From contig JAKAVV010000003.1 in NCBI GenBank assembly GCA_021817145.1, forward strand, positions 78,764 through 142,763: 64,000 nucleotides of DNA. Direction: 5' to 3'. The position numbers were made by a program, and so were the translations under genes. Position 1 is the first letter of the stretch. Each line of letters begins with the position of its first letter. Below, piece by piece: positions 633-56,461 of the stretch. The notes under the pieces are model-generated. The model was given only the letters and a program-made list of their open reading frames with translations. It was not told the DNA's origin and did not search any database. Source of the DNA: a bacterium (GTDB lineage: Bacteria; Vulcanimicrobiota; JABDET01).

Positions 633-2657
633 GTGTGTGGTATTTTCGGGGTTTGGTCTAAAAAAGAACCGCTTCAGCTGTCAATCATAGAAGATTCGGT
701 TAATCGTTTGAAACACAGAGGGCCTGATGATGAAGGATATCTTCTTTTTAACGGGATTACAGGCAGCTGTTGGACAGCTGGAGGAAGAAATACTCCGAAA
801 GCGATCTTTTCCAGCGCATTTTCTTATTCTCCAAAAACTTTGCTCTCCGATCTCTCTGTAAATGATTCGTATCATCTTGTTTTAGGACATCGAAGACTTT
901 CTGTGCTTGATCTTTCTCCCGCAGGACATCAACCTATGTGCAGTCCGGACGGGAAAATATGGATCGTTTATAATGGTGAAATCTATAATTATATTGAGTT
1001 AAGGGATGAACTGAAGGATAAAGGATTTCAATTCATGACAAATTCAGATACCGAAGTTCTTTTAGCTGCTTATCAATGCTGGGGGGAAGAAGCGCTTAAA
1101 AAGTTTAATGGGATGTGGGGGTTCTGTATTTTTGACAGAGAGAAGAAAACCCTTTTTTGTTCAAGAGACAGATTAGGAGTAAAGCCATTTTATTACTGGT
1201 TTGATGGAGAACATTTTGCTTTTGCTTCAGAAATAAAAGCTCTAAGAACACTTCCATTTGTAAAATCTTCCCCTAATAATAAAGTTATTTTTGATCATCT
1301 TCTTTTAGGCTGGCTGGATTTAGGAGAGGATTCTTTTTTTGAGGGAATTCATCAGCTGCCTCCTGGGTATTCTTTAACTCTGAAATTAGATGGGGATTTG
1401 TTTTTAAAGCCTTACTGGAAGCTGACTCCAAACCTGGAAATTGGAGAGTTTGACGAAACACTCTTTCGTTCTTACAAAAGTCAATACAGAAAACTGCTCA
1501 GTGATGCTGTAAAAATAAGGATGAGAAGCGATGTTCCAGTTGGTTCCTGCTTAAGCGGCGGACTTGATTCTTCAGCCATTGTCATGCTCGCCGAAAATTT
1601 GTTCAGAAAAAATGGCGCTTTACAAAATACTTCTCCTCTAAACACCTTTACTTTAACCTATCCTGATGAAAAATCGAGCGAAGGTTTTTTAGATGATCTG
1701 GAATATGCTAAAGAAATCATACAAGCAGTAGGCGCCAATCCTTATTTTATTGATCCTTCCCCTGAAAAAGGAAGTCTGCTTTTCAATTTAAAGACAGTAT
1801 TAAATTATATAGATGAACCTTATGTTTGCATGATTCCATTAGCCGTTTATCAATTGTTTAAAACGATAAGACAGAACAACGTGATTGTCGCATTAAATGG
1901 CCATGGAGCAGATGAACTTTTAGGAGGGTATCTATATATGCTCCCTTCTTATTTAGCTGGCATGGTTCTTGAGAATAAACAGAAAGATATTGTGCAGGAA
2001 GTGATGGATTTCAGCATCATGACAGGGAAAAGCATTCAAGAACTTTTATCAGTTATTGAACTCTGCTCTTCTAAAGAATCTTTTCCCCATCCCGCTGCAA
2101 CTGAAGCAAATCCATTCATTCGATATATGAATAAAGATTTTTTTGAGGCTTATGGGAAAGAAAGGCTTGAAAAAGTGGCTGATGATCTGTATCCATACAA
2201 AAATTTTAATGCTCTGCTTGCTTCATCACTGACAAAAGGGACATTAGCTGTCCAACTGAAGTATGAAGATAGAATGTCAATGGCTTTTTCTGTAGAGGAA
2301 CGGAATCCTTTTGCTGACGATTATCGTTTGATTGAATTTGCAGCTTCTCTGCCTGCTGTTTACAAGGTTCGAAAAGGGTGGACCAAGTACATTCATAGAG
2401 CTGCTCTAGAAGATTTAATGCCCGAGAAAATCACCTGGAGGAAGAAAAAAACTCCTCTTCCTGTGCCTGAAAAAAATATTATTTCTGCTTCTCTTAAGGA
2501 ATGTCGAGAATTGATTTCTGAACCGGATCCCTATTTAAATAGAGAGCTTCTGATGAAAGAGTTTGATTCCATACTTGATTCCTTGAATAATCAGCAGGGC
2601 TATGGGTTTTCATTAACACGGATACTTACTTTAAAATTGTGGCTTTCTGAGATGTGA
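633..2657 (+). CDS. asnB: Asparagine synthetase (glutamine-hydrolysing) family amidotransferase, AsnB-like
   Basis: CGIFGV Ntn-glutaminase N-terminus with Cys directly after a GTG at 633. The ORF track starts at an in-frame ATG at 606, which would put 9 residues before the catalytic Cys. PP-loop SCLSGGLDSS. At 683 aa it is long for the family. Its true substrate is unknown. Confidence 0.8.
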   Translation: MCGIFGVWSKKEPLQLSIIEDSVNRLKHRGPDDEGYLLFNGITGSCWTAGGRNTPKAIFSSAFSYSPKTLLSDLSVNDSYHLVLGHRRLSVLDLSPAGHQPMCSPDGKIWIVYNGEIYNYIELRDELKDKGFQFMTNSDTEVLLAAYQCWGEEALKKFNGMWGFCIFDREKKTLFCSRDRLGVKPFYYWFDGEHFAFASEIKALRTLPFVKSSPNNKVIFDHLLLGWLDLGEDSFFEGIHQLPPGYSLTLKLDGDLFLKPYWKLTPNLEIGEFDETLFRSYKSQYRKLLSDAVKIRMRSDVPVGSCLSGGLDSSAIVMLAENLFRKNGALQNTSPLNTFTLTYPDEKSSEGFLDDLEYAKEIIQAVGANPYFIDPSPEKGSLLFNLKTVLNYIDEPYVCMIPLAVYQLFKTIRQNNVIVALNGHGADELLGGYLYMLPSYLAGMVLENKQKDIVQEVMDFSIMTGKSIQELLSVIELCSSKESFPHPAATEANPFIRYMNKDFFEAYGKERLEKVADDLYPYKNFNALLASSLTKGTLAVQLKYEDRMSMAFSVEERNPFADDYRLIEFAASLPAVYKVRKGWTKYIHRAALEDLMPEKITWRKKKTPLPVPEKNIISASLKECRELISEPDPYLNRELLMKEFDSILDSLNNQQGYGFSLTRILTLKLWLSEM

Positions 2658-7982: not shown

Positions 7983-10811
7983 ATGCTTAGAATTCCGGTT
8001 TCGACTTATCGCCTCCAGTTTAATAAAAATTTTAAATTTTCAAATGCTGCGGATATTATTACTTATTTATCGGATTTAGGAATCACAGATTTATACTCTT
8101 CCCCTTTGTTTGAAGCAAAACCCGGCAGTATGCACGGCTATGATGTTATTAATCATGGGAATTTAAACCCCGAATGTGGTTCAGAATCGGATTTTAAAAA
8201 TTTAACTTCAATTTTAAAAAAGCATAATATGGGTTTGATTCTGGATCTGGTCCCTAATCACATGGCAGTTGATCATTCTGGGAATCGTTGGTGGAACACA
8301 ATTCTAGAGAATGGGCCAAGCTCCCCTTATTCCGATTTTTTTGATATTAACTGGGAGCCGCCTGTTCCTGATTTATTGAATAAAGTTCTTCTTCCATTTC
8401 TTGGGGATTCTTATGGTAAAATTTTAGAGGAGCAGGAGATCTCTCTTTTGTATGAAAATGGGGAGTTTTTTATCCAATGTTATTCCCTTAAGCTTCCGAT
8501 TGCTCCTAAAAGTTACCTTTCTATTTTGACCCCTGTTCTTGAAAAGATAAAATTGGATCGAAAGGAATCGGATCCTCTGCTTATGGAATTGGAGTCTATT
8601 TTAACAGCTCTTGGTTATTTGCCTGAACGTGTGGAACGTGAGGAAGAAAAGATTCGAGAACGGCAGCGCGAAAAAGAGGTAATAAAAAAAAGGATTTCCC
8701 TTTTGTATGAGCAAGATCCAATTTTTGCAGAGACTTTGAATGGGTATATTCGAAAAGTCAATGGAGAAAAAGGAGTTTCTGAATCTTTTAATGCCCTTGA
8801 AACCCTTCTGAATGAGCAGGCTTTTCGCTTATGTTATTGGGGAGTTGCCGCTGATGAGATTAATTATCGAAGATTTTTTGATATCAATTCTCTAGGAGCA
8901 ATACGAGTGGAAAAACCTGAAGTTTTTAATGCTGTCCATCAGTTGGCATTTGATCTGGCTGATCAAGGTGATGCAACTGGATTTCGGATCGATCACGTGG
9001 ATGGATTGTTTGATCCGGCCATTTATCTCCAAAATCTGCAAAAGGGGTCTCCTGGTTTTTCATCCTCCCTTTCTGATAAACTATTTTATGTGGTTGTAGA
9101 GAAAATTTTAACTGCCAGAGAAAAGCTAAATCAAAAATGGCCGATTTATGGAACAACGGGTTACGATTTTTTAAATTATTCCAATAAACTTTTTGTTAGT
9201 TTAGATGGGTTAGGAAGATTAACTCATTCATACCTGAATTTTACAGGTATTTATGGGAATTTTGCTTTCCATGCAGCGACCTCTAAAAAATTATTTCTGC
9301 TCACGCAGATGGCAAGCGAACTTTACATGCTCACCATCCGGCTGCATAAAATCGCTCGCCAAAATCGTTGGTCCAGAGATTTTACCCTTGAAAGTCTGCG
9401 TTTTGCTCTGCGCGAAGTGATGGCTTATTTTCCTGTTTACCGTACTTATAAAAACGAAAAGGATCCTTACACCCGAGAGGAAAAAATATACATAAAACAA
9501 GCGATTCATCAGGCTGTAGAGTCCAATCCAGCAGTCAGTCCAATAATTTTTAATTTTATCGAAAAGATTCTTCTTTTAGAACAGCCTTTTGGATCTCCAG
9601 AAAATCTGGAGCATCTGGATTTTGTCATGAGATTCCAGCAGCTGACAGGACCTGTGATGGCAAAAGGGCTAGAAGACACCGCATTTTATCGTTATTACCC
9701 CCTTCTTTCTTTGAATGAAGTGGGAGGTGATCCAGGGAAAATTGAGATAGCGCCTCTTGATTTTCATGATTGGAATCAGCACAAAGTGAAAGTATTTCCT
9801 CATTCCTTCAATGCGACTTCAACCCATGACACAAAAAGAAGCGAAGATTCACGAGCTCGATTAAATGTTCTATCTGAAATACCGGAAGAATGGAATGATA
9901 TCCTGGCTCGGTTCCACAGCTTAAATCTTCCTAAAAAATACTGGATTAATGGACAAGAGGTTCCCGATAAAAACGAAGAGTATCTTTTTTATCAGAGTCT
10001 TCTTTGTATCTGGCCATTTAATCCTCCTGACCATCGGACTCATCAAAACTTGATTGTCAGAGTTCAGGATTTTATGGTAAAAGCTCTGCGCGAAGCCAAA
10101 ATCCACACCAGTTGGATTAATCCCGATGAAAGTTATGAAGCAAACGTTAAGAACTATATTTCTCGCTGTTTAAAAAAATCTTCTCAAAATAACTTTTTAA
10201 CTTTGTTTCAAAAATTCACTAAAAAAATTGCGGAATCGGGATTTATTAATGCTTTGTCACAAGTCCTTCTCAAAATGACTGCTCCAGGGGTTCCCGATTT
10301 TTATCAGGGGACAGAGCTTTGGAATTTTTCTCTTGTGGATCCTGACAATCGCAGATCCATTGATTTCTCTAAGCGCAGGGAAGTTTTAGAAGAGATTAAA
10401 AAAATTGATTCCTTAAACTCAATAGATTTAGTCAAAAAATTGACGACTCATTTTGAAGATGGAAAAATTAAGATGTATTTGATTTATAAAACATTGAATT
10501 TTAGGAAATCTCATGTTGAACTTTTCCAAAAGGGGGATTATATTCCAATTAAGGCTATTGGACCAGCAAGAGATCATGTTTTTGCTTTCATGCGGACATA
10601 CAAAGAAAAACGGCTGATTGCTGCGGTTCCACGGTTTTTTACTCTTCTGGAGAAAAAGAAAAAGGCTGACCCTTTATGTTTAGAAAAAACTTCTTTAATC
10701 TTGCCCATAAAAGTTTCTTCACCCTGGACCCATCTTTATACAGGGAAAAAAGTTAAAAAACTTACTCTATCCACTCTTTTTCTCCATTTTCCAGTGAGTT
10801 TGTTATACTAA
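7983..10811 (+). CDS. treY: Malto-oligosyltrehalose synthase (GH13)
   Basis: The N-terminus STYRLQFNKNFKF..DLGITDLYSSPLFEAKPGSMHGYDV closely matches the TreY signature. 942 aa. Confidence 0.85.
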   Translation: MLRIPVSTYRLQFNKNFKFSNAADIITYLSDLGITDLYSSPLFEAKPGSMHGYDVINHGNLNPECGSESDFKNLTSILKKHNMGLILDLVPNHMAVDHSGNRWWNTILENGPSSPYSDFFDINWEPPVPDLLNKVLLPFLGDSYGKILEEQEISLLYENGEFFIQCYSLKLPIAPKSYLSILTPVLEKIKLDRKESDPLLMELESILTALGYLPERVEREEEKIRERQREKEVIKKRISLLYEQDPIFAETLNGYIRKVNGEKGVSESFNALETLLNEQAFRLCYWGVAADEINYRRFFDINSLGAIRVEKPEVFNAVHQLAFDLADQGDATGFRIDHVDGLFDPAIYLQNLQKGSPGFSSSLSDKLFYVVVEKILTAREKLNQKWPIYGTTGYDFLNYSNKLFVSLDGLGRLTHSYLNFTGIYGNFAFHAATSKKLFLLTQMASELYMLTIRLHKIARQNRWSRDFTLESLRFALREVMAYFPVYRTYKNEKDPYTREEKIYIKQAIHQAVESNPAVSPIIFNFIEKILLLEQPFGSPENLEHLDFVMRFQQLTGPVMAKGLEDTAFYRYYPLLSLNEVGGDPGKIEIAPLDFHDWNQHKVKVFPHSFNATSTHDTKRSEDSRARLNVLSEIPEEWNDILARFHSLNLPKKYWINGQEVPDKNEEYLFYQSLLCIWPFNPPDHRTHQNLIVRVQDFMVKALREAKIHTSWINPDESYEANVKNYISRCLKKSSQNNFLTLFQKFTKKIAESGFINALSQVLLKMTAPGVPDFYQGTELWNFSLVDPDNRRSIDFSKRREVLEEIKKIDSLNSIDLVKKLTTHFEDGKIKMYLIYKTLNFRKSHVELFQKGDYIPIKAIGPARDHVFAFMRTYKEKRLIAAVPRFFTLLEKKKKADPLCLEKTSLILPIKVSSPWTHLYTGKKVKKLTLSTLFLHFPVSLLY

Positions 10812-11884
10812 TGCAGCCAGGCATTTTTTTTCTAGAAGATGGAACCTGTTGGAAAGGGGAGCTTTTTGGAGCCTGTCAGGAAACATTGGGAGAAGCTGTT
10901 TTTAATACCGCGTTCACCGGATATGAAGAGATTCTTACAGATCCAAGTTACAAGGGGCAAATTGTTGTGATGGCTTTCCCTCATATTGGAAATTACGGCA
11001 TCACTCTTGAAGATAAAGAATCTTCTGAGTGTCATGTTCGCGGTTTTGTGGTGAAAGAAAAATCCTCTTATTTCTCTCATCGGAGAGGAAAAAGAACTCT
11101 GGAAGATTTTTTAAAAGAATCAGGTGTTACTGGTATTTCAGGAGTGGATACACGAGCTGTTGTCAAACATTTAAGGAATAGGGGAGCTCTGAGAAGCATT
11201 CTTTCTCCAGAAACAAACCTGGATATTCTTCTTCGAAAAGTTCAATCTTCCCACGGAATGGCAGGCTCTAGCTTTTTGGATGAAGTCTCAACTCGGGAAG
11301 TTTGCCATTATGAAAATACAGGACCCAGGATTATTTTGTACGATTTTGGTTTAAAACATTCGATTTTGAAAAGTTTGCTTCATCAAAAGTTTGAAGTATT
11401 TGTTGTTCCAGGGGAAACCCCTGCTCAAAAGGCTCTTTCTTTAAACCCTAAAGGATTTGTATTTTCAAATGGACCAGGGGATCCTGCTGTTCTCTTTGAT
11501 CAAATCGAAACAGTAAAAAAGCTGCTCAAAACAGAATTTCCGGCTCTTGGGATCTGCCTTGGGCATCAACTGCTTGGACTCGCTTTTGGAGGGAAAACAT
11601 ATAAATTGAAATTTGGGCATAGAGGTGTGAACCATCCCGTGAAAAATCTGCAGACAGGGGAAGTCAGCATAACTTCACATAATCATGGATTTGCGGTGGA
11701 TATGAAAACTCTTCCCATTTCATTGATTCCAGCTTATCAAAGCTTGTATGATGGGGTTTTAGAAGGGTTCTGTCATCGGGATTTTCCTTGTGCAGCGGTC
11801 CAGTTTCATCCTGAGGCAGCCCCTGGTCCTCATGATGAAAACAGATTTTTTCAAAAATTCATTGAATTTTTTCCTGAAATCTGA
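10811..11884 (+). CDS. carA: Carbamoyl-phosphate synthase small (glutaminase) subunit
   Basis: FFLEDGT N-terminus. GICLGHQLL catalytic Cys and FHPEA motifs. 357 aa. TAATG overlap with treY. Confidence 0.85.
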   Translation: MQPGIFFLEDGTCWKGELFGACQETLGEAVFNTAFTGYEEILTDPSYKGQIVVMAFPHIGNYGITLEDKESSECHVRGFVVKEKSSYFSHRRGKRTLEDFLKESGVTGISGVDTRAVVKHLRNRGALRSILSPETNLDILLRKVQSSHGMAGSSFLDEVSTREVCHYENTGPRIILYDFGLKHSILKSLLHQKFEVFVVPGETPAQKALSLNPKGFVFSNGPGDPAVLFDQIETVKKLLKTEFPALGICLGHQLLGLAFGGKTYKLKFGHRGVNHPVKNLQTGEVSITSHNHGFAVDMKTLPISLIPAYQSLYDGVLEGFCHRDFPCAAVQFHPEAAPGPHDENRFFQKFIEFFPEI

Positions 11885-11947
11885 TACAATGGATTTAATG
11901 TCGTAAAATGCGGCTCTGATAGAGCCTTAATACAAAAGGAGGTTGTC

Positions 11948-12436
11948 ATGCTGGGAAAGAGAAGAGAATCGGTGCCAGTGGAGACAGCAAGTGTAAAACA
12001 GGAGGTGCCAAAAACAATGTCAGACCAGATATCAACGGTATTAAGCGCTGATACCCATTTTAAAGGAACCCTTTCCTTTGAAAAGTCTTTAAAAATTGAA
12101 GGGGGATTTGATGGCGAAATTAATACCACAGGTTCCCTTTATATTGGGAAAGAAGCAAAAGTAAAAGCTGAAATTAAAGTCGGCGCAGTGTATGTTGATG
12201 GTTCTATTACAGGGAATGTGACAGCTCAAGAAAAAGTGGAACTGAGAAGCTCGTCGCGCTTAATAGGGGATATCAAAGCTTCCAAGCTGGTGGTTGAAGA
12301 GGGAGCAGCTCTGGCAGGCCACTGTGAAATAGGGATTAAATCGACTGCTGAAAAAGAAAGCTCTTCCTTAAAAGGAGGGGGTAATGTTTCGGTGAAAAAT
12401 CCGCCTGTTGAGGCTGGTATAGGTCTCAAATTTTAA
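11948..12436 (+). CDS. Bactofilin (DUF583) cytoskeletal protein
   Basis: Beta-helical repeats: IKVGAVYVDGSITGNVTAQEKVELRSSSRLIGDIKASKLVVEEGAALAG. Confidence 0.75.
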   Translation: MLGKRRESVPVETASVKQEVPKTMSDQISTVLSADTHFKGTLSFEKSLKIEGGFDGEINTTGSLYIGKEAKVKAEIKVGAVYVDGSITGNVTAQEKVELRSSSRLIGDIKASKLVVEEGAALAGHCEIGIKSTAEKESSSLKGGGNVSVKNPPVEAGIGLKF

Positions 12437-12444
12437 AATTTTGA

Positions 12445-12849
12445 ATGGAGGAGTTCCCTTTTTCTCCTCATATTGAATGTCCTTTTTGCAGGGAAGAAAT
12501 CGTTCGTCCTGTAAAAGCGATTACTACGACCTGTCCAAATTGCGGTAAAACTATTTCACTGGACAACCGTATTTTTAACCAAAAGTATGTTTTTTCAGGA
12601 GAAATTGTGACAAGAGGCAATATTTCTGTTGGGGAAAAGGGATTTGTAAAAGGGAATCTTTCAGCAGCAGAGATTGTGATTGAAGGAACTGTGGAAGGAA
12701 ATGTGAAAGCTGTTGAACGGATTCAATTGGGTCATTCCAGCCATTTAACAGGAAATGCGGAAACCGAAAGATTGATTGTTTTGGAAGGAGCCACTCTACT
12801 AGGAGATGTGAAAATAGGATTGAGAAGTAGAAGAAAAGAGAATGTTTAA
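12445..12849 (+). CDS. Bactofilin with N-terminal C4 zinc-ribbon (CPFC..CPNC)
   Basis: CPFCREEI..CPNCGK is followed by the bactofilin repeats GNLSAAEIVIEGTVEGNVKAVERIQLGHSSHLTGNAETERLIVLEGATLLGDVKIG. Confidence 0.7.
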   Translation: MEEFPFSPHIECPFCREEIVRPVKAITTTCPNCGKTISLDNRIFNQKYVFSGEIVTRGNISVGEKGFVKGNLSAAEIVIEGTVEGNVKAVERIQLGHSSHLTGNAETERLIVLEGATLLGDVKIGLRSRRKENV

Positions 12850-12864
12850 TAAAAGGGGGACTTA

Positions 12865-15258
12865 ATGCCTGTTTTAAAAAAAGAGTTTTCAGCCACTGGG
12901 GGACCTGGAATCCCGCCTCGCTGGACACGAAGCGCAAAACAAGGGATTGGCACCTCTTATTTTGCTGGAAGCAAAGTTTGGTTTACGATTTCATCAGGAA
13001 TGATCAATGAAGTTTACTATCCAACCATTGATCATCCGCAAATTCGAGATCTGCAGTTTTTATTTACAGATGGGAAGAGTTTTTTCGCTGATGAACGGCA
13101 TTTAACCCATACAAAAATCGAATATTTGCAGGATCGTGTTTTAGGAATAAACTTGGTTAATTCCGATCCCAAAGGGAATTATCAGATTGAAAAAGAGGTG
13201 ATTGTCAATCCTCATCAATCCGTTCTCCTGATCCATGTAAAATTATCTGGGAATTTGAATTTTTTAAAAACGCTTCGTGTTTTTTCTCTTTTAGCCCCTC
13301 ATCTGGATATTGGAGGTTGGGGGAATAATGGGTATGTTTGTGAAGTTTCAGGGAAAGAGATTCTGGTGGCAAATAAGGGAATCACCTGGTTAGCATTTGG
13401 AGGTACTGTTCCTTTTTTAAAGAGATCTTGCGGCTATGTGGGGACAACAGATGGCTGGCAGGATTTAAAAAGAAATTTTGAAATGGACTGGACTTTTGAC
13501 TGCGCGGAAAATGGAAATATTGCTTTAACTGGGGAGCTGGATCTTTCTAAAACAAAAGAGTTTACTCTTGCTTTAGCATTTGGACATAATTTAGAGGCTG
13601 CTGTTACTCAATTATATCAGTCCCTTGGGGTTCCTTATAAAGAACATAGAGAACGATTTATTGAGCAGTGGGTGAGGGCGGCCCATAATTTGCTGCCTCT
13701 GGGAAAAGTTTCTTCAGATGGTGGTAAATTATACTGCGCCAGTCACAGTTTACTCCTTGCCCATGAAGATAAAACTTACCCTGGAGCCATGATTGCTTCT
13801 TTAAGCATTCCTTGGGGAGAAGCAAAAGGGGATGAAGATTTAGGGGGATATCATCTAGTTTGGACAAGAGATATGGTGAACAGCGCTTCAGCCCTTTTAG
13901 CTTCTGGAAATCTCTCGACCCCGCTCAGAGCTTTAATTTATTTAGCTTGCACTCAAGAATCAGATGGTGGATTTTATCAGAATTTTTGGATTAATGGCGA
14001 GCCTTACTGGAAAGGGGTTCAATTGGATGAATCTGCTTTCCCCATTATGCTGGCATGGAAATTGAAACAAGCGGATGGTCTGGAGGATTTTGATCCTTAT
14101 CATATCATTTTAAAAGCGGCTCGATATTTAATTGCAAAAGGACCCTGTACCCCCCAAGAAAGATGGGAGGAAAACAGCGGATATTCTCCTTCCACCCTTG
14201 CAGCGAATATTGCTGCATTAATTTGCGCTTCTGAGTTTGCTCGTGTAAAAGGGGATTTAAAAGCCGCTCAATTCATTCAAGAATATGCTGATTTTTTAGA
14301 ATGTCATATTGAAGATTGGACTGTGACAACACAGGGGACTCTTGTTCCAGGTATTTCCAGACATTATATTCGTATTCTTCCCGTGGATCCTGTGAATCCA
14401 AAACCCTTAGAGGATCCAAATCAAGGGATTGTGCCAATTCGCAATCGTCCTCCTGGAGAACAATGGGAGTTCCCAGCTAAAGAGATTGTGGATCCAGGAT
14501 TTTTAGAATTGGTTCGCTATGGGATAAGGAAACCAGGGGATCCTTTAATTGAAGATTCCCTTAAAGTGATAGATGCTGTTTTAAAAGTAAAGACTCCTTT
14601 TGGTCCCTGCTGGCACCGCTATAATCATGATGGATATGGACAGAAAGATGATGGCGGTCCTTATACAGGAACAGGAAAAGGGCGCGCATGGCCTCTTCTA
14701 ACAGGAGAAAGAGGGCATTATGAATTTGCCTGCGGGAGAGATGTCAGCCCTTATATTAAAGCGTTAGAAGGATTTTCAATTGCAACAGGACTTCTCCCTG
14801 AACAGATTTGGGATGAAAAAGATCGACCTGAAAGAAAGTTATTTCTTGGCAGGCCTACCGGTTCTGCCATGCCCTTAATGTGGGCTCATGCCGAATACAT
14901 TAAACTTTTAAGATCGGTTCAGGATCATCAAGTATATGATTTTATCCCTCTGGTTGCTGAACGATACTGGAAAAATAGAAAATCTGTTTCTTTAGAAGTA
15001 TGGAAATTCAACCGTCAGCCGAACTCGGTTAAAAAAGGAAGAGCGCTCCGCATTCAAGCAGAAGCCTCTTTTATTCTGCACTGGTCAAAAGATGGCTGGA
15101 ATACCAGTTATGATTCACAATCTATTTCGACTTCTCTTGGGATTGATTATGTTGATCTGCCTATTGGAACAGATCAAAAGGCTCCGATTATGTTTACATT
15201 TTTCTGGGTGCAGTCCAAGCATTGGGAAGGGGAAAATTTTAAAGTGGATGTTTTTTAA
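12865..15258 (+). CDS. GH15-family glucoamylase / glucodextranase / trehalase-like enzyme
   Basis: GYHLVWTRDMVNSA is a GH15 catalytic-domain signature. The N-terminal beta-sandwich domain is typical of bacterial and archaeal GH15. 797 aa. Confidence 0.75.
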   Translation: MPVLKKEFSATGGPGIPPRWTRSAKQGIGTSYFAGSKVWFTISSGMINEVYYPTIDHPQIRDLQFLFTDGKSFFADERHLTHTKIEYLQDRVLGINLVNSDPKGNYQIEKEVIVNPHQSVLLIHVKLSGNLNFLKTLRVFSLLAPHLDIGGWGNNGYVCEVSGKEILVANKGITWLAFGGTVPFLKRSCGYVGTTDGWQDLKRNFEMDWTFDCAENGNIALTGELDLSKTKEFTLALAFGHNLEAAVTQLYQSLGVPYKEHRERFIEQWVRAAHNLLPLGKVSSDGGKLYCASHSLLLAHEDKTYPGAMIASLSIPWGEAKGDEDLGGYHLVWTRDMVNSASALLASGNLSTPLRALIYLACTQESDGGFYQNFWINGEPYWKGVQLDESAFPIMLAWKLKQADGLEDFDPYHIILKAARYLIAKGPCTPQERWEENSGYSPSTLAANIAALICASEFARVKGDLKAAQFIQEYADFLECHIEDWTVTTQGTLVPGISRHYIRILPVDPVNPKPLEDPNQGIVPIRNRPPGEQWEFPAKEIVDPGFLELVRYGIRKPGDPLIEDSLKVIDAVLKVKTPFGPCWHRYNHDGYGQKDDGGPYTGTGKGRAWPLLTGERGHYEFACGRDVSPYIKALEGFSIATGLLPEQIWDEKDRPERKLFLGRPTGSAMPLMWAHAEYIKLLRSVQDHQVYDFIPLVAERYWKNRKSVSLEVWKFNRQPNSVKKGRALRIQAEASFILHWSKDGWNTSYDSQSISTSLGIDYVDLPIGTDQKAPIMFTFFWVQSKHWEGENFKVDVF

Positions 15259-29369: not shown

Positions 29370-29444
29370 TGGCGGGCCAGGCAGGACTTGAACCCACGGC
29401 ATTCGGTTTTGGAGACCGACGTTCTACCACTGAACTACTGGCCC
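29370..29444 (-). tRNA. trnW: tRNA-Trp (anticodon CCA), CCA end encoded
   Basis: Reverse complement: GGGCCAGTAGTTCAGTGGTAGAACGTCGGTCTCCAAAACCGAATGCCGTGGGTTCAAGTCCTGCCTGGCCCGCCA. The cloverleaf was folded by hand: 7-bp acceptor stem, GTTC/GAAC D-stem, anticodon loop CTCCAAA, TTCAAGT T-loop. Confidence 0.85.
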
Positions 29445-50346: not shown

Positions 50347-50375
50347 ATTGACTCTTAGGATATTTTGTGCTAAAA
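50347..50375 (+). promoter_or_regulatory. Candidate sigma70 promoter TTGACT-17-TAAAAT upstream of rnpB
   Basis: Read directly. It is ~55 nt upstream of my estimated rnpB 5' end. A precursor or a slightly different 5' end would be needed to reconcile the two. Confidence 0.3.
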
Positions 50376-50435
50376 TAAAAAGTAGAAGCAGCAAGGTCTT
50401 TAAAAACTCCTGAATAAAGGGATATATTTGAAATA

Positions 50436-50957
50436 GAGAGCTAGCCGGGTGATCGCGGAGCTGAGAGTCGAGAAGTTAGATTAAGATTCGCGCTTCGAGG
50501 AAAGTCCGAGCTCCACAGGATAAGGTGCTGGGTAATACCCAGTAGAGGCGACTCTAGCAAAGTGCCACAGAAATGTTAACCGCCATAAGATCTTTTACAA
50601 ATCGCCTGTCCGGCAAAAATAAGATCTGTGGTAAGGGTGCAACGGCGGGGTAAGAGCCCACCAGTCATCTGGCGACAGATGAGCTAGGCAAACGCCACCT
50701 GGAGCAAGATCAAGCAGGGGGAACATTTATCGGATCTGTTGATGCAGCTTAGGTATGTGTGTGAAGGGTTGGTCATCAATGGGTTTATAAGATAATGTTA
50801 TGTAATCCTGGCAGTACCCCGGGTCGATCGCTAGAAACTGTCCAGTAATGGCAGTTCAAGATAGATGATCACCTTCTGCTCAATGCCAATAAAAGCTCCG
50901 TTAGAGCTGAAAAATGGCAGGATGCAGAAACAGAACTCGGCTTACAGGTTAACTCTC
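50436..50957 (+). ncRNA. rnpB: RNase P RNA (bacterial type A-like), unusually long
   Basis: GAGGAAAGTCCGAGCTCCACAGG (P4 5' strand). ACAGAAATGTTAACCGCC. GGGTGCAACGGCGGGGTAAGAGCCCACCAG. CCACCTGGAGCAAGATCAAGCAGGGG. ACAGAACTCGGCTTACAGG (P4 3' strand). Covariation with the E. coli M1 RNA pair GUCCGGG/CCCGGCU appears here as GTCCGAG/CTCGGCT. The ends are approximate. Confidence 0.85.
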
Positions 50958-51293
50958 TATTTTTTTTATTTTCTCGCTATCTACTGTTCCATCTTCTCGT
51001 TCTATCTGAATAAAAGGATCCCGATAAAGCGGTGATAATCCACTGTATCTGCACTTAACTTCATTGTGATAACAAGGAAGAATATTGCCGCAGTAAATAG
51101 ATCCCTGTTCCCCTTTAACAGAAGAGTTTTTGTAATCTGGATATTCTACAAGAATCGGCACACTTTTTTGCAAAATAAAACAAAACTTCTCTTGAGGCTC
51201 AAGAGCTTTTTGTTTTAATTGAACTTCAACCGCTTTTTTCCGAAGGCTCATTCTATTGGCTTCATCATACCATAACAAGGGGATAAAAAGCAA
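50949..51293 (-). CDS. Hypothetical protein (114 aa)
   Basis: ORF only. Its 3' end abuts the rnpB 3' end. Confidence 0.3.
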   Translation of the reverse strand: MLFIPLLWYDEANRMSLRKKAVEVQLKQKALEPQEKFCFILQKSVPILVEYPDYKNSSVKGEQGSIYCGNILPCYHNEVKCRYSGLSPLYRDPFIQIEREDGTVDSEKIKKIES

Positions 51294-51377: not shown

Positions 51378-52259
51378 ATGGCAAAGTTTTTTGGGCAGTA
51401 TTTATTGGAGAAAGGAATTCTTACCAGAGAACAGCTTTTAGAAGCTTTAACAAAACAGAGAGAAAAAGTTGAAAAAATAGGGGAACTGGCTGTTCGTAAA
51501 GGGTATTTAAAACCTCGCGACATTGAAGCGATTCAAAGGGAACAGCAGAAAAGCGATCTTTATTTTGGGGAAGCTGCTGTTAAACTTAATCTGCTGACAG
51601 AAGATCAGGTGAGAGAATTATTGAATATTCAAAGATCAAATCATGTTTACCTTGGAGAAATCATTGTGGATTTAAAATTTTTATCTAAAGAATCGGTGGA
51701 AAAAGAATTGAAAAGATTTCAGGAAGAAGAACAAGAAGGGGGAAGTGTCGGTGAACTGCATGTTCCATCTTCCTGCGCTCATCCCGAGCTGTTAAAAGCG
51801 ACGGCAGATTTGGCGATTAAACTTTTTCGGCGTGTTTCAGATTTGCTGGTAAAAGTTTCCACTGTGCTGGATACTGAAAAAGTCGAAAATCCCTATTCCC
51901 TGACTTTTATTAATATCAGCGGGGATTTTAAAGGCTCTCTTGCCCTAGGATGCTCAAAAAATGTCGTTCTTCATATTGCGAAAAATTTTGGAGGCAGCCG
52001 TCTAGATTGGAGCAGTGAAAAATTTGCTCACGACGCTGTTTCGGAATTTTTTAATATTTTCTGCGGAAATTTAATGACAAAATGGATGGAAATAGGGAAA
52101 TCTTGCGAGATTTCGGTTCCTTATTTTTTTCTGAAAACAGAGAAAGACGGTTTAAAAATCGGGAACGGCGCGCGCGTTTTTACTTTGGATTTAGACTCAA
52201 CTGAAGGAAAAGCTTCTGTCAGTCTTATTCCAAATTTTATTTTAGAAAAAACTGTTTAA
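51378..52259 (+). CDS. Tandem MshEN-type (T2SS-E N-terminal, c-di-GMP-binding) domains fused to a CheX-like CheY-P phosphatase domain
   Basis: Four consecutive 24-aa MshEN motifs: FGQYLLEKGILTREQLLEALTKQ, IGELAVRKGYLKPRDIEAIQREQ, FGEAAVKLNLLTEDQVRELLNIQ, LGEIIVDLKFLSKESVEKELKRFQ. The C-terminal half aligns with CheX: INISGDFKGSLALGCSKNVVLHIAKNFGG .. DAVSEFFNIFCGNL .. ISVPYFF, including the E-x-x-N catalytic pair. Confidence 0.65.
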   Translation: MAKFFGQYLLEKGILTREQLLEALTKQREKVEKIGELAVRKGYLKPRDIEAIQREQQKSDLYFGEAAVKLNLLTEDQVRELLNIQRSNHVYLGEIIVDLKFLSKESVEKELKRFQEEEQEGGSVGELHVPSSCAHPELLKATADLAIKLFRRVSDLLVKVSTVLDTEKVENPYSLTFINISGDFKGSLALGCSKNVVLHIAKNFGGSRLDWSSEKFAHDAVSEFFNIFCGNLMTKWMEIGKSCEISVPYFFLKTEKDGLKIGNGARVFTLDLDSTEGKASVSLIPNFILEKTV

Positions 52260-52287
52260 GGAACTCAATGGGAAAGGCGGATTTAAA

Positions 52288-52671
52288 ATGAGCTTACAGG
52301 ATAAAAAAGTAATGATTGTAGATGATTCAAAAGCCATGATTATGCTGCTGAAGCGGATTTTAGAAGAAGGCGGGTATCAAGTTGTGGGAGAGATACAAAC
52401 TGGGGAAGATGCCGTGATTCAGTATGATAAACTGAAACCCGATCTGGTTACAATGGATTTAATCCTACCTGGAATCAGCGGTATTGACGCGATTAAAAGA
52501 ATTTTAGGAAATGATCCCAAAGCTTGCATTGTAGCTGTCAGCTCTGTAGGTGGGACTCCAGAAAAATTAATGGATGCTTTAAAAGCCGGGGCGAGAAATG
52601 TTATTAGCAAACCTTTTGATCCAGAAAAAGTCACTAAAATTTTAAATGATGTTTTAGCTGCTCATAAATGA
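52288..52671 (+). CDS. Single-domain CheY-like response-regulator receiver
   Basis: IVDDS acidic pocket, phospho-acceptor TMDLILPG, conserved T/S and KPF. 127 aa. Confidence 0.8.
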   Translation: MSLQDKKVMIVDDSKAMIMLLKRILEEGGYQVVGEIQTGEDAVIQYDKLKPDLVTMDLILPGISGIDAIKRILGNDPKACIVAVSSVGGTPEKLMDALKAGARNVISKPFDPEKVTKILNDVLAAHK

Positions 52672-53900
52672 GCCCTTCCCCTGAAATTCCTTCCTGGCTT
52701 GAGGAAGAATCAAAAGAGCCTGCTGAAGAGAATTTAAGGGTTCCTATTCAACCTCATGTGCGGCCTATTAAAAAAAGGTCAAATTCAGCCCTGACTTTTA
52801 AAAAAATTTGGGAGGATAGAAGACAGTTAACGGGAAAATGGATCCCCCCTGTATCATTAAAAGTTAGTCTTAAAAACCTTTCCATATTTTCAAAACAGTT
52901 AGGGTTAATGATGGGTTCAGGGGTTACTCTTGTGAAGGCATTTGATATTTTAGGAACTCAAGGGGAAGATAAAAAGTTAAGAGAAGCTGCTCTTAAAGTA
53001 AAAGAAGGAGTTCTTTCAGGGTATGCCATTAGTTCTGCCCTTGAAAAAAAACCTGATATTTTCCCCCCTTTTTTCCGTTTTGCTGTACGCTCTGCTGAAA
53101 CTTCGGGAACTCTGCCCAAGACTCTTCTCAAACTGTCGGATTATTATGAAAAAATCAATTTGCAGAATCAGAAAGTGAAAGGCTCTCTTATTTATCCTGT
53201 TTTTGTTTTTGTGACTACTTTAGCTTTGTTTATGTTTTTGATCTCTTACATTTTTCCAATGTTTTCATCATTTTTTAAAGGGCTCCATTATCACCTTCCC
53301 TTGATTACTCGAATTCTGTTTTTCATTTTCCATTTATTGACAAGCGGCTGGTTTTGGGGGATTATTCTTGTTTTGGTGGTTGGTTTATATGCTGCATGGA
53401 AAACGAGCATAAAACGATCCGATTTTGCTTTATGGCTGAATATTCAGCAGCTGCAGATTCCTTTAGCTGGTCCCTGTTTGCAAAAAATTCAGAGTTCCTA
53501 TTTCTGCCGAACCCTTGCCACAATGCTGAATGCGGGGGTCAATCTTTTGACAGCTTTAGAAGTGTTTCAAAAAGGGATCGGAATGCCAGTCTTTAAAATT
53601 TTTTACAATAATATTCAGGAAGAGTTAAGAGCTGGATCCTCTTTGTCTCAAACCATAAAAGATATCTCTTTTTTTCCGCGGGCTGCTCAGGATCTAATCC
53701 TGGTTGGGGAAGAATCAGGAAATCTCTCGGCAATGTTGGAAAAAGCCGCTGATTTTCTGGATATTGAAATTGATACTTTAATTCAAAACTTAATGACTTT
53801 GATAGAACCCCTGCTTATTCTTTTTTTGGGGGTTATGGTGGCAGCGGTTTTGATAGGGATTTTTCTTCCTTTGTATTCGGCGATCAGCCAGATCCATTAA
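52668..53900 (+). CDS. pilC: Type IV pilus / type II secretion inner-membrane platform protein (PilC/GspF family)
   Basis: Two GspF-type repeats and three TM segments. Motifs LSKQLGLMMGSGVTLVKAFDIL and ..TLATMLNAGVNLLTALEV... ATGA overlap with the CheY gene. The first ~60 aa extend beyond the usual family N-terminus. Confidence 0.75.
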   Translation: MSPSPEIPSWLEEESKEPAEENLRVPIQPHVRPIKKRSNSALTFKKIWEDRRQLTGKWIPPVSLKVSLKNLSIFSKQLGLMMGSGVTLVKAFDILGTQGEDKKLREAALKVKEGVLSGYAISSALEKKPDIFPPFFRFAVRSAETSGTLPKTLLKLSDYYEKINLQNQKVKGSLIYPVFVFVTTLALFMFLISYIFPMFSSFFKGLHYHLPLITRILFFIFHLLTSGWFWGIILVLVVGLYAAWKTSIKRSDFALWLNIQQLQIPLAGPCLQKIQSSYFCRTLATMLNAGVNLLTALEVFQKGIGMPVFKIFYNNIQEELRAGSSLSQTIKDISFFPRAAQDLILVGEESGNLSAMLEKAADFLDIEIDTLIQNLMTLIEPLLILFLGVMVAAVLIGIFLPLYSAISQIH

Positions 53901-54000
53901 CAGGCGCAGCATGATTTCAATTAAATTGCGGGGAAAAGCCGTAAGGCTTTCGTAAATCGAGGTCTGTAGAGGCTGATTGGAATCTGAAATTTTCGGGGAT

Positions 54001-54029
54001 TTGAATTTTTTTCAACTTTGTAGTATAAT
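54001..54029 (+). promoter_or_regulatory. Consensus-like sigma70 promoter TTGAAT-17-TATAAT upstream of the pilin genes
   Basis: Read directly. The -35 is at 54001-54006, the -10 at 54024-54029, and the pilin start is at 54051. Confidence 0.5.
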
Positions 54030-54050
54030 TGGAATAACCGGAAATACTAA

Positions 54051-54452
54051 ATGATAAAATTGAAAGGGAAAAAAGGGATTAGTTTGCTGGAAGCCATGAT
54101 TTCTGTGGTCATTCTTGGAGTGGTTGCAGCGATTATGCTCGGAATTTTTCAAGTTTCATTCAACAGCATTTCGGATTCTTCTAACACTTATCTAGCAACT
54201 CTTATTGCCCAGAACAAAATGGAATATGACACTGAAAGTGGATATGCGGGGGTTGGAGGTCCGTCTATCGGTCCCTGGAAGCCTGTTTCTGTGCCTAATG
54301 GAAATCAGTATGCAACTTTTGAATGGCAGCAGTCTGTTCAGCAGGTAAATCTTGATTTGAAAGAGGTGGATATAACGGTTATGTGGAAGCAAAAAGGAGC
54401 TGCAGGCACATACAGAAAATATGTGATACTGTCCACAAGGATAGCCCAATGA
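54051..54452 (+). CDS. Type IV pilin / pseudopilin (prepilin-type N-terminal cleavage/methylation domain)
   Basis: MIKLKGKKG|ISLLEAMISVVILGVVAAIML: Gly at -1, Glu at +5, and a hydrophobic helix. 133 aa. Confidence 0.75.
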   Translation: MIKLKGKKGISLLEAMISVVILGVVAAIMLGIFQVSFNSISDSSNTYLATLIAQNKMEYDTESGYAGVGGPSIGPWKPVSVPNGNQYATFEWQQSVQQVNLDLKEVDITVMWKQKGAAGTYRKYVILSTRIAQ

Positions 54453-55153
54453 AAAAAGACGGGTTTTCAGGAATGACTTTAGTGGAAGTTTTAGTGGCTA
54501 TGATTGTGGTTGGTATTGTGATGAGCATTACTCTCGGAATTTTTGTTGCCAGCCGCCATTATTATCAGGCAGGATCCAGTCGTGTGGATGCGCAGTCTTC
54601 TGCTGAACTGGCATTAAATCGCTTAGTTCGAGAGATTCAAGAATCGGATCCTTCTGGAATCTCTACCCTTACTCCAGGAACTATTGTTTTAGTTTCGGCT
54701 AGAGAGGCTAATGGTAATCAGTTTGCAATCTATAATGGAATACCCAGCGGAAGCAGTACCCCTCCTTACTGCGGCAGCTCTCCTGCCTCAGATACAGGGA
54801 AGCCATGCTGGCAGAAATGGATTTGCTACTATTTAGCTCCACAGTCAGGGAGCAGTTATCAGGAGCTGATTCGAGTGGAAGGGAATCCAACAGGCTCTTC
54901 TTTCCCGAACACCGTGATCCCACCTTCTATTCCTTCTGCTCCTGCATTCCAGGGGGTTGGGCTTCCTCAAACTGTAATGGCTCGAAATATTAAAACATTT
55001 AATGTTCAGAGTTCCTGCGGTTTACCTGGAATTGATTATATTCAACTGACTGCAGCAGAAAACAACAATGGATTAACCATCACTTATAATCCTGGGTTCC
55101 AGGTTGGAAGCTGCGGGACAGGGAATTGGATTGAAGCGCTGCCGAGAAATTAA
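54449..55153 (+). CDS. Type IV pilin / pseudopilin (prepilin-type), 235 aa
   Basis: Start at the ATG that overlaps the upstream stop as ATGA. MKKDGFSG|MTLVEVLVAMIVVGIVMSI with Glu at +5. The ORF track's upstream extension from 54383 is unlikely. Confidence 0.7.
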   Translation: MKKDGFSGMTLVEVLVAMIVVGIVMSITLGIFVASRHYYQAGSSRVDAQSSAELALNRLVREIQESDPSGISTLTPGTIVLVSAREANGNQFAIYNGIPSGSSTPPYCGSSPASDTGKPCWQKWICYYLAPQSGSSYQELIRVEGNPTGSSFPNTVIPPSIPSAPAFQGVGLPQTVMARNIKTFNVQSSCGLPGIDYIQLTAAENNNGLTITYNPGFQVGSCGTGNWIEALPRN

Positions 55154-55168
55154 GGGGGTGGAACAAAA

Positions 55169-56461
55169 ATGAAGCATAAGAAAGGGATTGTTCTAGCGTA
55201 TGTTTTAATTTTTCTGCTGGTTTTAGTGGTGCTGGGTTTTGCTTTAGGTTCTTCTGGCATTTTTTCATTGTCCCGCTCATTTCAAATTCAAAATTCAACT
55301 TCTGCTCTGTATGCTGCTCAAGCGGGAATTGCTGATGAGGTTTATAATATTGAAGAGAATCAACTTGCGCCTGTTCCTCAATGTCCACCTTCTGTTGGTA
55401 ATAATAGTTATACTCTTCCGAACACCATTCTCCCCAATAATACCAGGATCTCAAATCAAACGATTTTAGCTAATTATGGAAGCGGATGTGCGAGTTCTGC
55501 TGTTATCAATGGGATTACCATCCCTCCTGGAATGGCTTATTTGAGCGCAGTGGGAAGTATTTCAACGACCCATAAAACAGTGAATGAACTGCTTCAAATT
55601 GACAGTTGGCCATTTCAGGGCGCAGGGTTTGGCAGCAGTTCTGTCGCATTAAGTGGAAATGCCTCAACTGATAGTTATGAATCTAAAGCTTGTGGAGGAG
55701 GGATGTATGGTGGAAGTAATATCTCTCAAGATGGAAATATAGGAACTAATTCTTCGTCAAATGGAGCTGTTGACTTAAGTGGAAACGCTGATATCGGAGG
55801 AGCTGTCAGTGTTGGACCTGGAGGAACGGCCGGATCTCCGACTGTTTCCACTTCAGGCAGTGTCAACTGCCCTGGATCTTCATGTTCTGGCGGAGTTAAT
55901 ATTCTTCCTGCTCCTTTTCCAATGCCAGTTATTACAGATCCTTATGGAGGGGCAGGAACAACTAATGTTAACCTTTCTGGAAGCACGAATTATGGAGTTC
56001 TTACCCCAGGGCAGTATGGAAGTATTTCTTTGTCTGGAACCTCTACTCTTGAATTGACTTGCGGGAATTATTCCATTAATAGTTTACAGATGAGTGGAAA
56101 TGGAGAAATCACGATTGATTCTTCATGTTCAGAATCAAACCCCGTAAAACTGTATGTTTACAACTCTTTAACAATTTCAGGGAATGGATTTATCAATAAT
56201 GAGGAAGCTCCTACTTTGTTGATTTACGGGATGCCTACTCTGACCACCGCATCTATTAGCGGCAATGGAAATGGAGGGTATGCCCTTTATGCTCCAAATA
56301 CTAACGTCACGATTACAGGGAATGGGGATCTTTACGGGTCAATTATTGGAAAAACAATCACTAACTCCGGAAACGCTAAAATCCACTATGACACATGTCT
56401 TGGGATAGATGCTTACACAAAACTCAATCTTCCTATTCCTAAAAGCTGGAACTCCCAGTGA
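55169..56461 (+). CDS. PilX-like minor pilin / pilus-tip protein with long Gly/Ser/Asn-rich repetitive (beta-helix-like) region
   Basis: Hydrophobic PilX_N-like N-terminus MKHKKGIVLAYVLIFLLVLVVLGFALGS with no Glu at +5. This is followed by ~350 aa of SGN/GGS-rich repeats (..SGNASTD.., ..SGNADIGG.., ..ISGNGNGG.., ..ITGNGDLYG..). Confidence 0.5.
   Translation: MKHKKGIVLAYVLIFLLVLVVLGFALGSSGIFSLSRSFQIQNSTSALYAAQAGIADEVYNIEENQLAPVPQCPPSVGNNSYTLPNTILPNNTRISNQTILANYGSGCASSAVINGITIPPGMAYLSAVGSISTTHKTVNELLQIDSWPFQGAGFGSSSVALSGNASTDSYESKACGGGMYGGSNISQDGNIGTNSSSNGAVDLSGNADIGGAVSVGPGGTAGSPTVSTSGSVNCPGSSCSGGVNILPAPFPMPVITDPYGGAGTTNVNLSGSTNYGVLTPGQYGSISLSGTSTLELTCGNYSINSLQMSGNGEITIDSSCSESNPVKLYVYNSLTISGNGFINNEEAPTLLIYGMPTLTTASISGNGNGGYALYAPNTNVTITGNGDLYGSIIGKTITNSGNAKIHYDTCLGIDAYTKLNLPIPKSWNSQ

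Follow-up and report, generated by a model that had tools for sequence, protein, structure and literature searches.

A 524-nt type A RNase P RNA with peripheral hairpins expanded at known variable sites in a small clade of uncultured bacteria

Within the 64-kb window, the whole stretch of DNA analysed here, a region with an empty ORF track had been described in a preliminary description as holding an RNase P RNA about 520 nt long with an expanded 3′ half. The locus raised the question of whether it encodes a complete RNase P RNA of a known type, and of what its additional length consists. A cmscan search of the whole window assigned 50437–50960 on the forward strand to rnpB, a gene of 524 nt that matched RF00010 (RNaseP_bact_a) with 255.8 bits and an E-value of 3.5e-82. 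As the gathering score of RF00010 is 100 bits, the score was 2.5 times the threshold, and both the proposed length and the expectation of an above-threshold covariance-model (CM) score were borne out. The match spanned model positions 1–367 without truncation, ranked first among the members of clan CL00002 at this place, and was the single RNase P RNA found by the Rfam scan in the whole window. The previously given limits, 50436–50957, identified the right locus but differed from the cmscan limits of 50437 and 50960. No ORF of 60 aa or more lay inside 50437–50948, in agreement with the empty ORF track; the value for annotation is that this rnpB locus was unannotated and lies in an ORF-free region. 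The 524-nt sequence was 100% identical in four independent assemblies (the NCBI MAG GCA_027421625.1, Logan, ENA, and a JGI metagenome), and an assembly artefact was therefore excluded.

The full secondary-structure model, in which the Rfam alignment and local folding were combined, comprised 165 base pairs, those of the P4 and P6 pseudoknots among them. In it the universal core was intact, with P1–P5, P7–P11, P13–P15, P18, both pseudoknots, and the L15 GGU. All features of rnpB are given on the forward strand. The 5′ strand of P1 (50437–50447) was paired in the Rfam alignment and the pair model with the 3′ strand (50945–50956), with three compensatory pairs among the three species compared below (the window, its sister species L125, and the more distant L144). 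The 5′ strand of P2 (50448–50454) paired with 50867–50873, and its pair G13–C436 was replaced by A–U in L144. CR-I with the 5′ strand of P4, GAGGAAAGTCCGAG (GAGGAAAGUCCGAG), at 50497–50510, and CR-V, comprising J19/4 and the 3′ strand of P4, ACAGAACTCGGCTTA (ACAGAACUCGGCUUA), at 50930–50944, were invariant in the three species. The P4 pseudoknot consisted of 8 bp formed with 50936–50943, with U69 bulged and an A73–U501 pair instead of the consensus G–C, which confirmed the compensatory change noticed earlier in this helix; the covariance model placed the 3′ P4 strand where the preliminary description had placed it, with maximal posterior probability. The P6 strand CAGGAU (50516–50521) formed 6 bp with AUCCUG (50805–50810), and its pair U85–A369 was U–G in L125 and C–G in L144 (GGAC/GUCC, the L144 sequence being read by eye).

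Every motif named earlier was likewise present at its place. ACAGAAA..AACCGCC was found at 50567–50586 and GGTAAGAGCCCACC at 50649–50662. P13 and P14 of the specificity domain, a hallmark of type A that includes GGUAAGAGC, occupied 50644–50684 with compensatory pairs in both helices. The segment 50701–50711 comprised GGAGCAAG (50701–50708), which forms the 3′ strand of P5 with J5/15, and the P15 5′ strand GAUC, which pairs with 50826–50829. In P16, GGGG (50717–50720) paired with CCCC (50817–50820), and a G–C pair was changed to A–U in L144. The L15 GGU, which binds the tRNA 3′-CCA in E. coli (PMC9945441), lay at 50822–50824, and the surrounding CCGGGU (50819–50824) aligned with the CM consensus ucCGGGU. 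P18 (50836–50856) was of normal length with a GUAA tetraloop and had three compensatory pairs in L144; both P9 and P18 were canonical in the CM alignment. Type A RNAs are defined by the presence of P6, P16, and P17 and the absence of the type B elements P5.1, P10.1, and P15.1 (PMC7191817). The window rnpB had a P6 of 6 bp, a P16 of 4 bp, and a minimal P17, and the CM alignment showed no insertions at the positions of P5.1, P10.1, and P15.1.

To locate the additional length, distances between universal landmarks were compared with those in the M1 RNA of E. coli K-12 (377 nt), which was taken by coordinates; blastn against E. coli genomes gave no match. The window rnpB was 147 nt longer (524 versus 377 nt), and of this excess 72 nt lay between P16 and P17, 52 nt at P19, and 22 nt in the specificity domain, mainly in P12. 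From the 5′ end to the 5′ P4 strand, both RNAs measured 60 nt, and from the 3′ P4 strand to the 3′ end both measured 31 nt. The other distances, for M1 and the window, respectively, were 182 and 204 nt from the 5′ P4 strand to GGAGCAAG, 38 and 110 nt from GGAGCAAG to CCGGGU of L15, 33 and 34 nt from GGGU to J18/2, and 19 and 71 nt from J18/2 to the 3′ P4 strand. Between the end of GGAGCAAG and ACAGAAC, we measured 221 nt in the window and 96 nt in M1, close to the roughly 200 and 95 nt estimated previously for the span from the P15 region to the 3′ P4 strand, and the 3′ half, rightly called expanded, held 125 of the 147 excess nucleotides. The accompanying proposal of one inserted or extended helix in P15–P18 held for P16.1, which lies there, but a second element, P19, lies beyond P18. 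M1 and the window rnpB had in common helices P1–P18, the P4 and P6 pseudoknots, the L15 GGU, and the P18 tetraloop, whereas M1 has a short linker where the window RNA has P19; in the window RNA, P17 was cut to 3 bp and one P4 pair was A–U instead of G–C.

Four peripheral hairpins were expanded, and each expansion was a single hairpin more stable than shuffled controls (z −2.3 to −4.5). P3 (50456–50497) was as long as in E. coli and about 18 nt above the Rfam consensus; its distal hairpin varied between species, with compensatory pairs at 24–57 and 25–56. P12 (50580–50636) was an extended irregular hairpin of 57 nt (z −3.6) with a conserved terminal GCC-UGUCC-GGC; its middle stem was re-paired with a different sequence in L125, and in L144 P12 measured 64 nt. 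P19 (50874–50929), starting directly after the 3′ strand of P2, was a three-tier hairpin of 56 nt, 52 nt more than in M1 (z −4.5). Its terminal AGCUC-CGUUA-GAGCU was conserved in L125, in which C450–G481 had become U–A, a compensatory change, and G449–C482 had become G–U; the P19 of L144 was shorter, at 31 nt.

P16.1 (50722–50799) was a hairpin of 78 nt, 72 nt in excess, inserted between P16 and P17 at CM position 245/246, and local folding gave a P16/P16.1/P17 three-way junction in the window rnpB. This arrangement, with P17 following the branch helix and L17 still paired in P6, recurred in L125 and L144. It folded as a single irregular hairpin in the window and in L125 (z −2.4 against shuffled controls), with basal stems AACAUU/AAUGUU and GGAUCUGUUGAUG/CAUCAAUGGGUUU and a variable distal stem and 15-nt loop. 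In L125, U294–A356 was changed to C–G and two G–U pairs to G–C, and the internal loop (50727–50731 and 50785–50793) was modelled differently in the two species. The adjoining P17 (50801–50813) was minimal, a 3-bp helix UGU/GCA whose loop carries the P6 3′ strand AUCCUG (50805–50810). In searches of Rfam, P16.1 matched no other family up to E=10 and the matches to P19 were at chance level, with E above 2, and an embedded second RNA family in P16.1 or P19 was rejected on the ground that nothing exceeded chance. An origin of the inserts from a mobile element or dispersed repeat was also rejected, since the window and all fetched loci lacked a second copy of them.

Relatives were reached by synteny from the genes flanking rnpB, which encode an FAD oxidoreductase and a CheX-like protein. 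Synteny with rnpB was lost beyond the sister species, and among the loci reached rnpB was carried only by L125/L139 and L144. In the sister species (L125, also represented by L139 and L140), the flanking proteins were 69–76% identical to those of the window, and rnpB was 523 nt long and scored 253.8 bits. In the more distant L144, the CheX-like protein was 49% identical, and rnpB, at 1758–2252 (+), was 495 nt long and scored 264.3 bits. The window and L125 were 85–92% identical overall. The anticipated conservation of the insertion in relatives was found in both: the window, L125, and L144 RNAs were expanded at the same four sites with differing lengths and distal sequences. From P15 to GGGU, the distances were 110, 107, and 99 nt in the window, L125, and L144, respectively, and from J18/2 to the 3′ P4 strand they were 71, 72, and 47 nt. 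Thus, the four peripheral expansions are conserved in position in a small clade, their bases being conserved and their tips evolving quickly.

Across the three species, 97.5% of the core helices were paired and 15 pairs were changed on both sides, a result reached by none of 500 column shuffles; controls with slid partners were 28–44% paired. For the 165 modelled pairs in the window and L125, 94.8% of cells were paired, as against 32–42% with partners slid. This compensatory evolution across three species showed, at the level of the aligned sequences, that the rnpB structure is under purifying selection. For the expansion helices, in which only two species could be aligned, there was one compensatory pair each in P3, P12, P16.1, and P19, besides several changes from G–U to G–C; the four double changes were not significant (94 of 500 shuffles), and the covariation within the expansions is consistent with the modelled helices. 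These data also bear on the reading of the locus as a decaying or non-functional copy, or a chimera, with the real RNase P encoded elsewhere or being protein-only. All conserved regions and helices were intact at a score far above the threshold, the compensatory changes in three species argue against decay, and the four identical independent assemblies argue against a chimera; a pseudogene or chimera was rejected by the covariation and the replicate assemblies, and, with 64 kb of the genome covered, we consider the probability of this reading to be next to nil. We are instead highly confident that rnpB encodes a complete bacterial type A RNase P RNA in which the core is intact and the peripheral expansions most likely have a stabilising or folding role.

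In another reading, the P16.1 arm would be a platform for a lineage-specific protein or would make a new tertiary contact, either of which would add a property to this RNase P. Its 13-bp stem GGAUCUGUUGAUG / CAUCAAUGGGU, rich in G–U pairs, was invariant between the window and L125, unlike the stems of P3, P12, and P19, which changed between these species. However, between species as similar overall as these two, 26 unchanged nucleotides count for little, and the P16.1 of L144 had a completely different sequence with a GAGA tetraloop, so that the clade as a whole shares no sequence-specific feature. A platform of this kind is thus extremely unlikely in our judgement. Two observations on L144 may be added here: its P16.1, at the same site and of unrelated sequence, measured about 60 nt and carried its GAGA tetraloop, of the GNRA type, where the window P16.1 has a 15-nt loop, and its P17, directly after P16.1, was a well-formed 6-bp hairpin with the loop GGUCC, compared with 3 bp in the window.

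Excision of P12, P16.1, or P19 after transcription, which would yield a fragmented RNase P RNA, has a precedent in Thermodesulfatator indicus, in which a very large P12 expansion is excised in vivo (PMC9945441), and the poor conservation of distal P16.1 and P3 is as expected of dispensable sequence. The T. indicus and window RNAs are both type A with a conspicuous lineage-specific expansion; however, the window P12 was only moderately extended and gave no sign of fragmentation, the expansions as a whole are modest (56–78 nt) and their bases are conserved, processing signals are not known, and expanded P RNAs are for the most part taken to be intact. We accordingly hold excision to be very improbable. 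The broader proposal that P16.1, and possibly P19, has a clade-specific function, whether in protein recruitment, as a folding guide, or through excision, with the 13-bp G–U-rich stem as a recognition element, we regard as improbable. An intact type A RNA with stabilising hairpins remains our preferred reading.

Whether an RNA of this length is unusual was assessed by a genome survey with a pattern that set GGAGCAAG and the 3′ P4 strand 181–241 nt apart. It was matched in at least 120 GTDB species of many phyla, and roughly half of the matches were true expansions of the 3′ half; the other half or so were false because GGAGCAAG also occurs near J11/12. A two-gap pattern applied to JGI metagenomes gave nine matches, none of them related. 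The lengths quoted for other genomes are Rfam-verified, as landmark spans obtained by regular expressions were unreliable in some of them, for example in L031. Seventeen of 18 survey loci checked with Rfam were type A RNAs of 520–578 nt, from MAGs labelled Acidimicrobiia, Pseudomonadota, Nitrospirae, Xanthobacteraceae, Dehalococcoidia, Planctomycetota, Chloroflexi, Deltaproteobacteria, Rhodospirillaceae, Alphaproteobacteria, and Omnitrophota. With type A RNAs of such lengths in other phyla, the window RNA is long but not exceptional.

Insertions at CM position 245/246 were present in three other genomes, with about 93 nt in a Planctomycetaceae MAG, about 140 nt in a Planctomycetota MAG, and 94 nt in an alphaproteobacterium, and folding gave a P16/P16.1/P17 junction and an L17–P6 pairing in these as well. 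Four Planctomycetota MAGs (L020, L025, L069, and L116) had the same insertion site, three-way junction, and pairing of the P17 loop with J5/7 (P6) as the window, and they alone among the matches listed shared with it the J15/16 signature GCAAG-NNN-AAGCAGGG. They differed in being G+C-rich, in a P16.1 of about 93–110 nt, in having no P19 expansion (54 nt from GGGU to P4), and in a core identity to the window of only about 67%. The best core similarity of the window rnpB was mostly to Planctomycetota, and the J15/16 signature hints weakly at a PVC-like affinity of the lineage. In searches with RelA/SpoT homologues and cluster names, the named matches were to Candidatus Xenobium, at 50%, and to Firmicutes. 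Alphaproteobacterium BRH_c36 (L010, 520 nt) and L054 (521 nt) resembled the window in having a 94-nt insertion at CM 245/246 together with an extended P19, but their lineage and insert sequences were unrelated and their G+C content was 63%, so that growth at the same sites was evidently independent (convergent).

Several further observations were made on the surveyed RNAs. Seven type A RNAs of 554–578 nt (L105, L072, L056, L106, L082, L043, and L076, from MAGs labelled Acidimicrobiia, Pseudomonadota, Nitrospirae, Xanthobacteraceae, Dehalococcoidia, Planctomycetota, and Chloroflexi) were at or beyond the range given in PMC7191817. Eight loci from Dehalococcoidia and from some Omnitrophota and Planctomycetota MAGs (L006, L028, L052, L053, L082, L095, L040, and L043) had a normal P15–P17 region (35–42 nt) and 140–163 nt from the L15 GGGU to the 3′ P4 strand, which implies very large expansions of P18 and/or P19. 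In many Alphaproteobacteria, Bacteroidota, Nitrospinota, and Zixibacteria, a further GGAGCAAG lay about 100 nt downstream of the 5′ P4 strand, in P10–P12; because this octamer recurs there, simple motif searches for the P15 region give systematic false positives. In a Desulfobacteraceae MAG (CAZDVV010000016.1; L031, 761–1300, +), rnpB contained a direct repeat, TGTCCCTTCTTA(G/A)AGTTGAGTGCCGGGA, about 30 nt long, with one copy ahead of the 5′ P4 strand (787) and another ahead of the 3′ P4 strand (1255); its reverse complement lies at about 1150–1170, and the Rfam match ended at 1170, before the real 3′ P4 strand. In this RNA, P2/P19 may be unusually long, with a choice of two partners for pairing.

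In the flanks of the window rnpB, a consensus scan gave a promoter-like TTTAAA-18-TATATT at 50399–50428 (+), which stops 8 nt short of the predicted mature 5′ end, and a stronger promoter-like match, TTGACT-17-TAAAAT, at 50348–50376; both rest on the consensus scan. After the P1 stem, a T-rich run (T8 A T4, 50960–50972, +) was read from the sequence as a possible termination signal and was not called by a terminator scan. A 114-aa ORF convergent to rnpB (50949–51293, −) overlapped its last 12 nt. It encodes a conserved small protein that belongs to no Pfam family; the counterpart in L125, an ORF of 121 aa in the corresponding place (1260–1625), showed 79% identity. On the other side, rnpB was adjoined by the gene for the FAD-dependent oxidoreductase (PF12831; 48940–50295, −), which forms a conserved three-gene unit with those for a 328-aa protein of no known family and a GAF-GGDEF protein. 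The oxidoreductase had relatives in the clade down to about 50% identity, and its next named homologues, at 44–47%, were those of Paenibacillus, Cohnella, and Brevibacillus, which suggests horizontal transfer. Downstream of rnpB, 51378–56461 (+) encoded the CheX-like phosphatase, with a long extension at its N-terminus, followed by a single-domain response regulator, a platform protein of the T2SS/type IV pilus (T2SSF), and several pseudopilin-like proteins that carry methylation motifs at the N-terminus. Elsewhere in the window, the sole tRNA, tRNA-Trp (CCA) at 29370–29444 (−), was the only other above-threshold Rfam match, and a trehalose/glucan cluster at 7983–15258 (+) contained the malto-oligosyltrehalose synthase TreY (942 aa) and a glucan 1,4-alpha-glucosidase-like protein (797 aa).

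Type A RNase P ribozymes, together with the small RnpA protein, remove the 5′ leader from tRNA precursors. From what is known of the family, the window RNA would likewise cleave tRNA 5′ leaders with RnpA, its core carrying four lineage-specific peripheral hairpins in the model, a long P3, an extended P12, the 78-nt P16.1, and the 56-nt P19. As P19 begins directly after P2, it probably stacks on P2, and P16.1 would project from the P15–P17 subdomain, away from the substrate. Most likely, the expansions lie away from the tRNA-binding face and stabilise the catalytic domain or help it to fold, adding no new activity. P19 is described as a helix that varies in length and is stacked on P2, with the bacterial expansion segments located away from the tRNA interface (PMC12974513).

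Compared with known P RNAs, which range from 250 to 550 nt and average 374 nt in type A (PMC7191817), the window rnpB, at 524 nt, is at the upper end of the published range. The P RNA of Methylacidiphilum infernorum has P16.1, P18.1, and P19 as expansion elements and retains the L15 GGU; among further members of the PVC group, P19 is described as well as P16.1 or some other departure from the usual P15/P16/P17 (PMC9945441, citing Herrmann 1996/2000 and Butler & Fuerst 2004). The window rnpB had the structural features of this P16.1 and P19 variant, namely a branch helix at P16/P17, an L17–P6 pairing, and a P19 between P2 and J19/4. In a comparison by description only, it shared with the M. infernorum and PVC-group RNAs the type A core, P16.1 with P19, and the L15 GGU, whereas M. 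infernorum has an extended P9 and a rare P18.1 where P9 and P18 of the window are canonical. The pair of P16.1 and P19 was also found in Alphaproteobacteria. The expansion sites are already described and recur across phyla, and no new question is opened by them. Because its extra length consists of hairpins at positions already known to vary, the window rnpB is an ordinary member of the known family. The three uncultured species are one more small clade in which hairpins have grown at the P16/P17 junction and at P19, which lends support to the idea that growth of RNase P RNA recurs at a small set of peripheral sites.
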